NCBI RefSeq assembly: GCF_057098645.1
Contig: NZ_CM169472.1
Length of the DNA: 64,000 bases
Direction: 5' to 3' (one strand)
The notes beneath the pieces are model-generated. The model was not told where the DNA came from. It made no database searches and saw only the letters and a list, made by a program, of their open reading frames with translations. Made by a program: the position numbers and the translations under genes. Numbering within the stretch: position 1 is the stretch's first letter; each line of letters opens with the position of its first letter. Positions 12,356 through 13,016 of this stretch are shown one piece after another.

Positions 12356-12709
12356 GTGTTTAAAACCAAATGGTTTGCAAGGGAAGCCAGGTCTCATGCA
12401 ATAACAGATGAAGAGTTGTGCCGGGCCATTTTAGAAACAGAACAAGGTAAAGCTGATGCACTTGGCGGTGGCGTTTTTAAAAAGCGCCTTCACCAAAATC
12501 GTGAGCGTGCAATTATTCTGGCGAAAGGGGTAAGCAATTGGTTTTACACGTTTTTATATGCAAAACAGGATATGTCGAACATCAATAGTCAGGAACTGGC
12601 TGGGTTTCGTGAAATTGCAAAGCATTATGCCTTCCTGACGAAAGCCCAACTAACAGCAATGATTAACACTAAAGAACTGACAGAGATCTGCTATGACTGC
12701 AAAAACTAA
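12356..12709 (+). CDS. type II toxin, HigB-2-like (Gp49/RelE-ParE superfamily)
   Basis: 117 aa ORF with a Gly-rich/basic segment (GGGVFKKRL) and ...WFYTFLYAKQDMSNINSQELAGFREI..., resembling Vibrio HigB-2-type toxins; 3' end overlaps the downstream HTH gene. Confidence 0.7.
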   Translation: MFKTKWFAREARSHAITDEELCRAILETEQGKADALGGGVFKKRLHQNRERAIILAKGVSNWFYTFLYAKQDMSNINSQELAGFREIAKHYAFLTKAQLTAMINTKELTEICYDCKN

Positions 12710-13016
12710 ATTTAAAAGTCCTGCATTTGAGGCTATTCACAGCGCAGCGGCTGGATTGTCCAGCGTCAATGCTATTTCTGCTGAAACGATGCGTACTTTT
12801 GACAAAGCCTGCCTGACCAGCGTGCAAGACTTACAACCTGTTGAGATAAAAGCACTGCGGGAAAAATTAAAAGTGAGTCAGCCCGTCTTCGCTCACTATC
12901 TCAATACCAGCGTTTCAACTGTACAAAAATGGGAAAGTGGCGCTAAACGCCCCAATGGCATTTCATTAAAACTGCTCAGCATTGTGCAAAAACACGGGTT
13001 GGAGGTGCTGCTGTAA
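12693..13016 (+). CDS. type II antitoxin, HigA-2-like (XRE-family HTH)
   Basis: 107 aa ORF with C-terminal XRE-type helix-turn-helix (...PVFAHYLNTSVSTVQKWESGAKRPNGISLKLL...); overlaps the toxin by 17 nt. Confidence 0.7.
   Translation: MTAKTKFKSPAFEAIHSAAAGLSSVNAISAETMRTFDKACLTSVQDLQPVEIKALREKLKVSQPVFAHYLNTSVSTVQKWESGAKRPNGISLKLLSIVQKHGLEVLL

Follow-up and report, generated by a model that had tools for sequence, protein, structure and literature searches.

The structurally characterized prototype of the gene pair described here is the HigB-2/HigA-2 system of Vibrio cholerae (VcHigBA2; VCA0468/0469; PDB 5JAA, 5JA8, 5JA9 and 8A0X), an overlapping toxin-first operon carried in a superintegron cassette. 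VcHigB2 is a ribosome-dependent mRNase with catalytic residues R51, R64, Y82 and K84, whose substitution by alanine cut activity 170- to 3000-fold, and its antitoxin has a disordered N-terminal region that adopts a helix and a strand upon folding on the toxin (PMC5416850). A recent survey of the RelE/ParE superfamily assigned V. cholerae HigB-2 to Pfam family PF06296, whose members are variously named HigB-2, RelE or StbE, and described in silico a set of bicistronic relE-yiaG modules, with VREC0535 as the E. coli example (Gerdes 2025, mBio; PMC11980606). In these modules, the gene for a PF_RelE toxin lies 5' of that for a YiaG-like helix-turn-helix (HTH) antitoxin, which carries two N-terminal helices predicted to neutralise the toxin. 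A further group of toxins with the RelE/BECR fold is formed by the Gp49/HigB family (PF05973), exemplified by M. tuberculosis HigB1.

Here, we analyzed a toxin-antitoxin pair located between nepI and yicN in a 64,000-nucleotide stretch of contig NZ_CM169472.1, hereafter the window. The pair is a module of a known kind: it is annotated in RefSeq, it has a structurally characterized prototype, and its relE-yiaG type was catalogued in 2025. It has in common with VcHigBA2 a PF06296 toxin and an overlapping toxin-first operon, and with the relE-yiaG modules the order of the two genes; it occupies a fixed core-genome site, whereas VcHigBA2 belongs to a superintegron cassette. We are reasonably confident that the pair is a vertically inherited chromosomal operon of the HigB2/HigA2 type which K-12 has lost, and that in the O157 allele the output and activity of the toxin are probably much reduced. 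Beyond bookkeeping, the locus has little significance; the two points worth carrying forward are the polarity of loss relative to K-12 and the loss of a start codon behind the annotated GTG.

Organization of the nepI-yicN interval

According to an open reading frame listing with translations, the window contains two ORFs on the + strand, the toxin gene coming first and overlapping the antitoxin gene by 17 nt (Table 1). They are flanked by nepI (- strand, ending at 12170) and yicN (- strand, ORF 13132-13611), and the pair is transcribed divergently from nepI. The same two coding sequences, identical in sequence, are recorded by RefSeq in E. coli O145 RM9872 as a "type II toxin-antitoxin system RelE/ParE family toxin" and a "helix-turn-helix domain-containing protein". 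More broadly, many O157:H7 genomes match the 661-bp pair at 100% identity, and the allele of the window is therefore of the O157:H7/O145:H28 type. A first-pass annotation, made from the sequence of the window, had described a toxin-first, overlapping pair made of a RelE-superfamily toxin and an XRE-HTH protein, and both the ORFs and the Pfam matches detailed below bear out such a pair, of type II.

Table 1. Position of the pair and of its associated features in the window
Feature	Position	Strand	Remarks
Segment specific to the pair-carrying allele	12217..13056	+	Candidate promoter, toxin, antitoxin and partial REP arm; delimited base by base against K-12
Inverted repeat TAAAGTATTGCAC-TTG-GTGATATACTTTA, candidate operator	12302..12330	+	13-nt arms, 85% complementary
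Candidate extended -10, TGaTATACT	12319..12327	+	Overlaps the right operator half-site; TGcTATAnT in other taxa
Shine-Dalgarno core, AGGA	12336..12339	+	Spacing of 10 nt to the canonical start and of 16 nt to the annotated GTG
ATA at the canonical toxin start position	12350..12352	+	ATG in other genera and in most E. coli carriers
Toxin ORF	12356..12709	+	117 aa, GTG start; PF06296/HigB-2-type, RelE superfamily, predicted mRNA interferase; canonical frame from 12350; Gly to Val at residue 59
Antitoxin ORF	12693..13016	+	107 aa, ATG start; residues ~1-45 putative toxin-binding segment; XRE HTH at 52-96, HigA-2/YiaG/MqsA-like
Partial REP-like arm	13024..13040		Only in the pair-carrying allele; pairs with the first shared REP
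Two inverted REP units	13057..13125		Common to K-12; right boundary of the indel

REP/BIME elements are imperfect palindromic units of about 35 nt that recur in a genome and form inverted pairs, and the sequence to the right of the antitoxin gene agrees with this definition. The window has two exact copies of the 25-mer CGGATGCGGCGTGAACGCCTTATCC, at 13060-13084 and 47867-47891, where the chance expectation is 0, and inverted-repeat arms were detected at 13024-13040/13070-13086 and at 13084-13093/13106-13115. The same region (13023-13088) gave a sub-threshold match to the Rfam model naRNA4, which we take to be a REP-derived RNA. REP repeats had been placed at 13030-13125 beforehand, and these coordinates were approximately right, the units at 13057-13125 being those also found in K-12.

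Absence of the pair from K-12 and distribution in E. coli

The statement in the first-pass annotation that K-12 has no such pair between nepI and yicN proved correct, as 840 bp of the window (12217-13056) stand opposite 41 unrelated bp in K-12, while the flanks are collinear with K-12 through 12216 on the left and again from 13057 on the right. These junctions were derived from an anchored comparison, a MAFFT alignment of the whole interval having scattered the short K-12 sequence across the gap. At the ends of the segment, we found no target-site duplication, terminal repeats or junction direct repeats; no integrase or recombinase gene accompanies the segment, and no transposase ends are present at the junctions.

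In a set of 5426 complete E. coli genomes, the pair is present in 1716, each time on the chromosome and in one copy, and 3667 harbor the empty allele of the K-12 type (3387 of them at at least 99% identity over 101 bp). Of the 5403 genomes where the locus was detected, 5383 thus have one or the other of these alleles, making the locus essentially biallelic. The carriers include ST131, ST38, O157:H7 and IAI39, which we take to represent phylogroups B2, D, E and F, and the empty allele is found in K-12, O111:NM and APEC O78, presumably of phylogroups A, B1 and C. Identity of the pair within E. coli ranges from 97.7 to 100%, like that of its flanks, with the exception of one poor assembly. The latter, HS-02, had initially been considered as a divergent second allele (76.5%) associated with a K-12-type nepI; it contains long G and A homopolymer runs and was hence treated as a poor assembly rather than an allele.

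Outside E. coli, orthologues occupy the same nepI-adjacent site in other genera, with identities of 66-71% for the toxin and 79-84% for the antitoxin. The gene order, where T and A stand for toxin and antitoxin, is yicS-nepI-T-A-yicN in C. koseri, nepI-T-A-yicN in both C. freundii and K. oxytoca, and nepI-T-A followed by a PTS island in Salmonella. The pair has remained linked to the divergent nepI promoter in all of these genera, including Salmonella, in which the yicN side is no longer the same. In Escherichia ruysiae, the antitoxin is 93% identical. Both genes display a dN/dS < 0.15 between genera, denoting strong purifying selection. The between-genera dS amounts to at least 2 for the pair (saturated), about 2 for yicN and about 1.3 for nepI, the toxins of C. 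koseri and K. oxytoca being unexpectedly close to each other (dS 0.99); with synonymous sites saturated, vertical descent cannot be separated from an old homologous replacement at this depth.

These data bear on the origin of the segment, which the first-pass annotation regarded as a small acquired module. Under such a scenario, a mobile toxin-antitoxin cassette would have been recently inserted by horizontal transfer and the K-12 site would be ancestral, as might be suggested by the lack of the pair in K-12 and about 68% of E. coli, by the plasmid-borne members of the wider family in rhizobia, Coxiella, Pseudomonas and Legionella, by the different loci that the module occupies in Yersinia, Dickeya and Pantoea, and by an indel that abuts REP elements. 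We nevertheless consider it highly improbable, since three other genera, represented by four species, have the pair at the same site with a divergence comparable to that of the flanking yicN, facing a single E. coli empty allele; since its junctions lack an integrase, transposase ends or a target duplication; since no E. coli plasmid carries it and no E. coli genome has more than one copy; and since both its 97.7-100% identity within E. coli, similar to the flanks once the poor assembly is excepted, and the 93% identical antitoxin of E. ruysiae point the other way. The alignment of the nepI-yicN interval with K-12, proposed beforehand as a check, hence confirms the absence of the pair from K-12, yet the pair reads as backbone rather than as an insertion.

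The same-site orthologues in other genera, together with one common empty allele, instead argue for a long-standing residence of the pair at this site in Enterobacteriaceae and for a loss in the K-12 lineage. The empty K-12 state would result from one old deletion ending at the REP, now present in about two thirds of E. coli. The 41 bp that fill the K-12 site may be a relic of the operon, given a marginally significant alignment: the 41-mer matches toxin codons 23-35 of the ST131 and ST38 alleles with a score of 31, where shuffled sequences score 20.7 ± 3.1 and reach this value in 5 of 500 cases. The same comparison was not significant with the O157 allele (24 of 500 shuffles reaching the score), nor with any of the other genera. 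As a module of the backbone lost by K-12, the pair bears on the use of K-12 as an "ancestral" reference for pathogen-specific genes.

Family, fold and putative active site of the toxin

Pfam searches, which had been proposed beforehand with the Gp49/DUF891 and XRE-type HTH models in mind, left the former unmatched, and returned a strong PF06296 match for the toxin and an HTH_3 match for the antitoxin (residues 52-96, E 6.2e-8). The match of the toxin to PF06296 "RelE" (E 5.8e-39, 133.5 bits for a cutoff of 27) covers residues 1-111 of the protein and positions 3-120 of the 120 of the profile, while Gp49/DUF891 (PF05973) gave no match at E ≤ 1. PF06296 was formerly named DUF1044. V. cholerae HigB-2 itself, using a sequence verified to be identical to PDB 5ja9_C, exceeds the PF06296 cutoff of 27 with 34.5 bits and reaches only E 0.13 with Gp49.

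The AlphaFold2 (AF2) model of the toxin, built on 78 homologues, has a pLDDT of 85.8 and features two N-terminal helices, four strands and then C-terminal helices. In a Foldseek search with this model, the best eight matches were all VcHigB2 chains (probability 0.99-1.0, TM 0.43-0.59, E-values of about 5e-3, identity of only about 20%), followed by M. tuberculosis HigB1 (7awk), Cami1, YoeB, RelE and YafQ. Neither phmmer nor a profile of 20 sequences of the clade retrieved any solved structure at E ≤ 10, and the link between the toxin and HigB2 is therefore drawn from Pfam and the fold search. In the "Gp49/HigB-2-type" label of the first-pass annotation, the HigB-2 part is thus upheld by PF06296 and by the best eight Foldseek matches, and the Gp49/DUF891 part is not retained: the toxin has the RelE/BECR fold in common with Gp49/HigB toxins such as M. 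tuberculosis HigB1 but, having no PF05973 match, is not a member of that family. It also departs from VcHigB2 in its modeled architecture, with two C-terminal helices and a short strand where VcHigB2 has the single C-terminal helix alpha3, and without the long Lys/Gly-rich beta2-beta3 loop of the latter. Likewise, the relE-yiaG members highlighted in the survey have toxins with extended disordered N-termini (PMC11980606), whereas the toxins of the present clade (119 aa) have none.

A candidate for the R/R/Y/K active-site pattern of VcHigB2 is also present in the toxin. By matching the four strands in order and by using the motifs GGxxxKxR, RxII and (F/Y)xxxxYxK, we propose R44, R51, Y68 and K70 as the putative counterparts of VcHigB2 R51, R64, Y82 and K84, respectively. 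Among the 78 homologues, R44 and R51 are each conserved in 77, Y68 in 65 (with Phe in 12 others) and K70 in all 78. An hhalign comparison of the clade profile with VcHigB2 produced a different register in the middle of the protein, with a probability of 2.8% and one strand skipped, and was set aside for residue mapping; given this differing register, even at very low confidence, we regard the proposed correspondence as inferred from strand order and motifs. Homology to V. cholerae HigBA2 suggests that the toxin is a ribosome-dependent mRNA endonuclease cleaving codons in the A site.

Antitoxin

The predicted C-terminal XRE helix-turn-helix of the 107-aa protein was recovered both by the HTH_3 match and by the comparison with solved structures, in which the best relative was V. 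cholerae HigA-2 (5jaa, E 7.9e-10), aligned through its HTH over 57 residues (46-102 of the antitoxin). Matches to three NCBIfam models remained below threshold, namely NadS (41.3 bits, cutoff 60), the MqsA family (41.0 bits, cutoff 61.8) and PRK10072.1 (29.1 bits, cutoff 110), which is presumably the YiaG equivalog, and the likeness to all three is confined to the HTH region.

An N-terminal binding segment followed by a C-terminal HTH would be a layout common to this antitoxin and to that of VcHigBA2, the binding segment being putative here. No sequence similarity was detected between the N-termini of the antitoxin and of VcHigA2. In an AF2 model of a fusion in which the toxin is joined to the antitoxin by a (GGGGS)6 linker, antitoxin residues 4-40 form a strand and two helices (pLDDT 80-94), N-terminal to a four-helix HTH; two N-terminal helices, predicted to neutralise, are likewise modeled in the relE-yiaG modules. 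The ordering of the antitoxin N-terminus in the fused model agrees with the relE-yiaG modeling of the survey (PMC11980606). Neutralization may accordingly resemble that of V. cholerae HigBA2, with the N-terminal ~45 residues of the antitoxin folding onto the toxin.

Candidate operator and promoter

The arms of the inverted repeat (12302-12314 and 12318-12330) lie directly 5' of the Shine-Dalgarno core, and the center of the repeat reads TTGCAC (12309-12314) N3 GTGATA (12318-12323). Upstream regions were aligned for E. coli (two alleles), C. koseri, C. freundii, Salmonella, K. oxytoca, Yersinia, Dickeya and Pantoea. A CAC-N3-GTG-N-TATA core is invariant in the nine taxa, with the consensus TAGCAC-N3-GTGCTATAnT, and the ACAGGA Shine-Dalgarno sequence is conserved in eight of nine. 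In Yersinia, Dickeya and Pantoea, the module is found at other chromosomal sites and the palindrome is kept, which indicates that the motif belongs to the module and not to nepI.

A consensus scan requiring both hexamers found no sigma-70 promoter in 12100-13200, and a consensus scan of the same region found no terminator. The extended -10 listed in Table 1 is proposed on the basis of its conservation. The palindrome covering it is likely an autorepression operator for the HTH antitoxin: by analogy with V. cholerae HigBA2, a dimer of the C-terminal HTH would bind TAGCAC-N3-GTGCTA over the extended -10, leading to self-repression of the operon.

Start codon loss and probable decay of the toxin gene

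Orthologous toxins are 119 aa long with the N-terminus MRVFKTKWF, and the 117-aa ORF with a GTG start is hence not the canonical gene, a point that the first-pass annotation had overlooked. The window reads ATA CGC GTG at 12350-12358, where the other genera and E. coli ST131, ST38, O139 and 2017C-4173W12 have ATG CGC GTG, and 54 of the 78 aligned homologues have a Met two codons before the GTG of the window. Translation in E. coli initiates very poorly at ATA. By exact 60-mer searches among 1715 carriers, ATA was found in 490 genomes and ATG in 1058. A second change, Gly to Val, affects toxin residue 59, a conserved turn glycine present in 69 of the 78 homologues. The ATA haplotypes comprise O157/O145, MLI114, CUVET19-1993, IAI39 and CFSAN061771. 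All four combinations of ATA/ATG with neighboring SNPs were seen, and ATA is therefore either recurrent or recombined. In IAI39 and CFSAN061771, the ATA alleles additionally carry a Trp8-to-stop mutation and a 1-bp deletion, and the toxin is a RefSeq pseudogene, while none of the ten E. coli alleles compared has a disrupted antitoxin ORF.

The toxin ORF of the window is full length and its translation could start at GTG 12356, or weakly at the ATA. One may hence argue that the module is fully functional, with normal amounts of toxin made from GTG 12356 and both ATA and the Gly-to-Val change being neutral: the 117-codon ORF is intact with all four putative catalytic residues present, RefSeq records an intact toxin, and GTG is a common start codon in bacteria. 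We find this unlikely, as the sole Shine-Dalgarno-like core is 16 nt away from the GTG versus 10 nt from the canonical position, as the Met lies two codons earlier in 54 of 78 homologues, as Val replaces a Gly conserved in 69 of 78, and as ATA alleles elsewhere have gained nonsense and frameshift mutations. The combination of ATG to ATA with a change at a conserved Gly suggests that both toxin output and activity are much reduced, and the O157-type toxin is thus probably attenuated or decaying, with the antitoxin/repressor retained.

On this evidence, the O157 allele looks like an early stage of a toxin-first decay that is completed in the IAI39-type alleles. The series from ATG to ATA, and then to ATA plus nonsense and frameshift mutations, the antitoxin being always intact, offers a clean natural case of toxin-first decay of a chromosomal toxin-antitoxin system. 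The GTG start annotated in RefSeq hides the loss of the canonical ATG in about 30% of the carriers, including O157:H7 and O145:H28, and EHEC toxin-antitoxin inventories may therefore count a barely expressed toxin. The loss of the start codon might also have been selected rather than neutral, yielding an antitoxin-dominant locus that neutralises plasmid PF06296 toxins or regulates nepI, a notion to which we give little credence.

Wider family and possible role in defense

A total of 184 plasmids, from rhizobia, Coxiella, Agrobacterium, Pseudomonas, Legionella and others, carry homologues with less than 60% identity. Two top "plasmid" matches (records of 4.9-5.4 Mb) were chromosomes filed as plasmids and were discarded. 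No E. coli plasmid carries the pair in the 5426 complete genomes, and a phage collection contained no phage copy, its single match being a Salmonella chromosomal contig. Enterobacteria carry a chromosomal, domesticated branch of this family, whose members act elsewhere as plasmid addiction modules.

Some RelE/ParE-superfamily modules have been linked to defense (PMC11980606), and the retention of the antitoxin where the toxin decays would fit an anti-addiction function against related plasmid toxins. It is nonetheless very unlikely that the main role of the pair is abortive-infection phage defense or protection against related plasmid toxin-antitoxin systems, as opposed to that of a selfish or stress-response module: PADLOC returned no match for the toxin and only generic HTH matches for the antitoxin, the neighbors are housekeeping genes rather than a defense island, and no phage copies were found.

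A literature search by protein accession and by the names of neighboring genes found no experimental study of the nepI-adjacent pair. Judging from gene order, from which the equivalence of locus tags was deduced, STM3777-STM3778 of Salmonella Typhimurium appears to be its positional orthologue, with a toxin identity of 68-69% and an antitoxin identity of 79-81% to the pair described here; apart from unrelated mentions, the single text source retrieved for it is a paper that is now retracted (PMC3868539), in whose Table 1 STM3777-STM3778 is listed as a relBE-type toxin-antitoxin system.

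Decay of the toxin gene in other alleles

In the alleles of IAI39 (L027) and CFSAN061771 (L014), the toxin gene combines ATA at the canonical start position with a Trp8-to-TAG change and a 1-bp deletion, while the antitoxin gene is intact. In these two alleles the decay of this module, with the toxin going first, has run to completion. Among the toxin homologues (e.g. P0003 and P0116), some E. coli and Salmonella variants have the conserved beta3-beta4 region replaced by short out-of-frame stretches, such as KREEAIGFY or TSQSKPRSRNRVGKREANIGFY. Such stretches resemble compensated frameshifts and are additional signs of toxin erosion. 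A different case is presented by E. coli HS-02 (NZ_CP172818.1), whose toxin-antitoxin region (L013, 2271-3249) is only 76-80% identical although the record is described as a complete genome. This region contains many long poly-G and poly-A runs and appears to reflect sequencing errors that were left uncorrected, not a genuinely divergent allele; the nepI protein of this strain is the K-12 allele.

Divergence and gene disruption around the indel

Divergence from K-12 is unusually high on the yicS-nepI side of the indel, with 90.3% identity over 1.8 kb (L001, 1-1817), some 150-bp bins down to 74-88% and a dS of 0.23 for nepI, versus 97.8% identity on the yicN-adeQ side. This imbalance suggests that the haplotypes on the nepI side of the presence/absence polymorphism are old and recombined. 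The nepI gene of the window also lacks 54 bp (18 codons) in frame relative to both O145 RM9872 and K-12, at a site lying among short repeated GCACC/CGGCG motifs. Of 16 rows sampled from 5403 genomes, 12 covered the full query and all of these showed the undeleted form (a 141-nt query spanning 195 nt in the record); the other four were partial query matches. The deletion therefore looks rare or strain-specific.

Beside the nepI start, a block (TAACATT..AAATGTGTGACGCATTTAACGTTTTTGCAACTTTT) is conserved in E. coli, Citrobacter, Salmonella and Klebsiella, is still present in K-12, and probably serves nepI as a promoter or regulatory region. It includes a TGTGA-N6-TAACG motif similar to half of a CRP site. 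On the other side, adeQ is broken into two overlapping ORFs, and the annotation of the identical sequence in O145 gives adeQ as a pseudogene with a frameshift.

Features in and around the indel (window coordinates)
Feature	Position	Strand
yicS-nepI side compared with K-12	10454-12216	
nepI deletion site	11750-11768	-
Conserved block beside nepI start	12165-12216	
Toxin 1-bp deletion, IAI39 and CFSAN061771 (window-equivalent)	12665	
25-nt REP core	13060-13084	
adeQ	13637-15048	-
adeQ, one ORF	13637-14062	-
adeQ, other ORF	13975-15048	-
REP core, second exact copy	47867-47891	

Other locations of the module

In Dickeya (L019) and Pantoea (L020-L022), the module adjoins not nepI but a GATase/Aminotran_3 gene pair, which we take to be pabA-argD. 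This site is a second conserved location, common to the two families. Yersinia (L017) carries the module at a third location.
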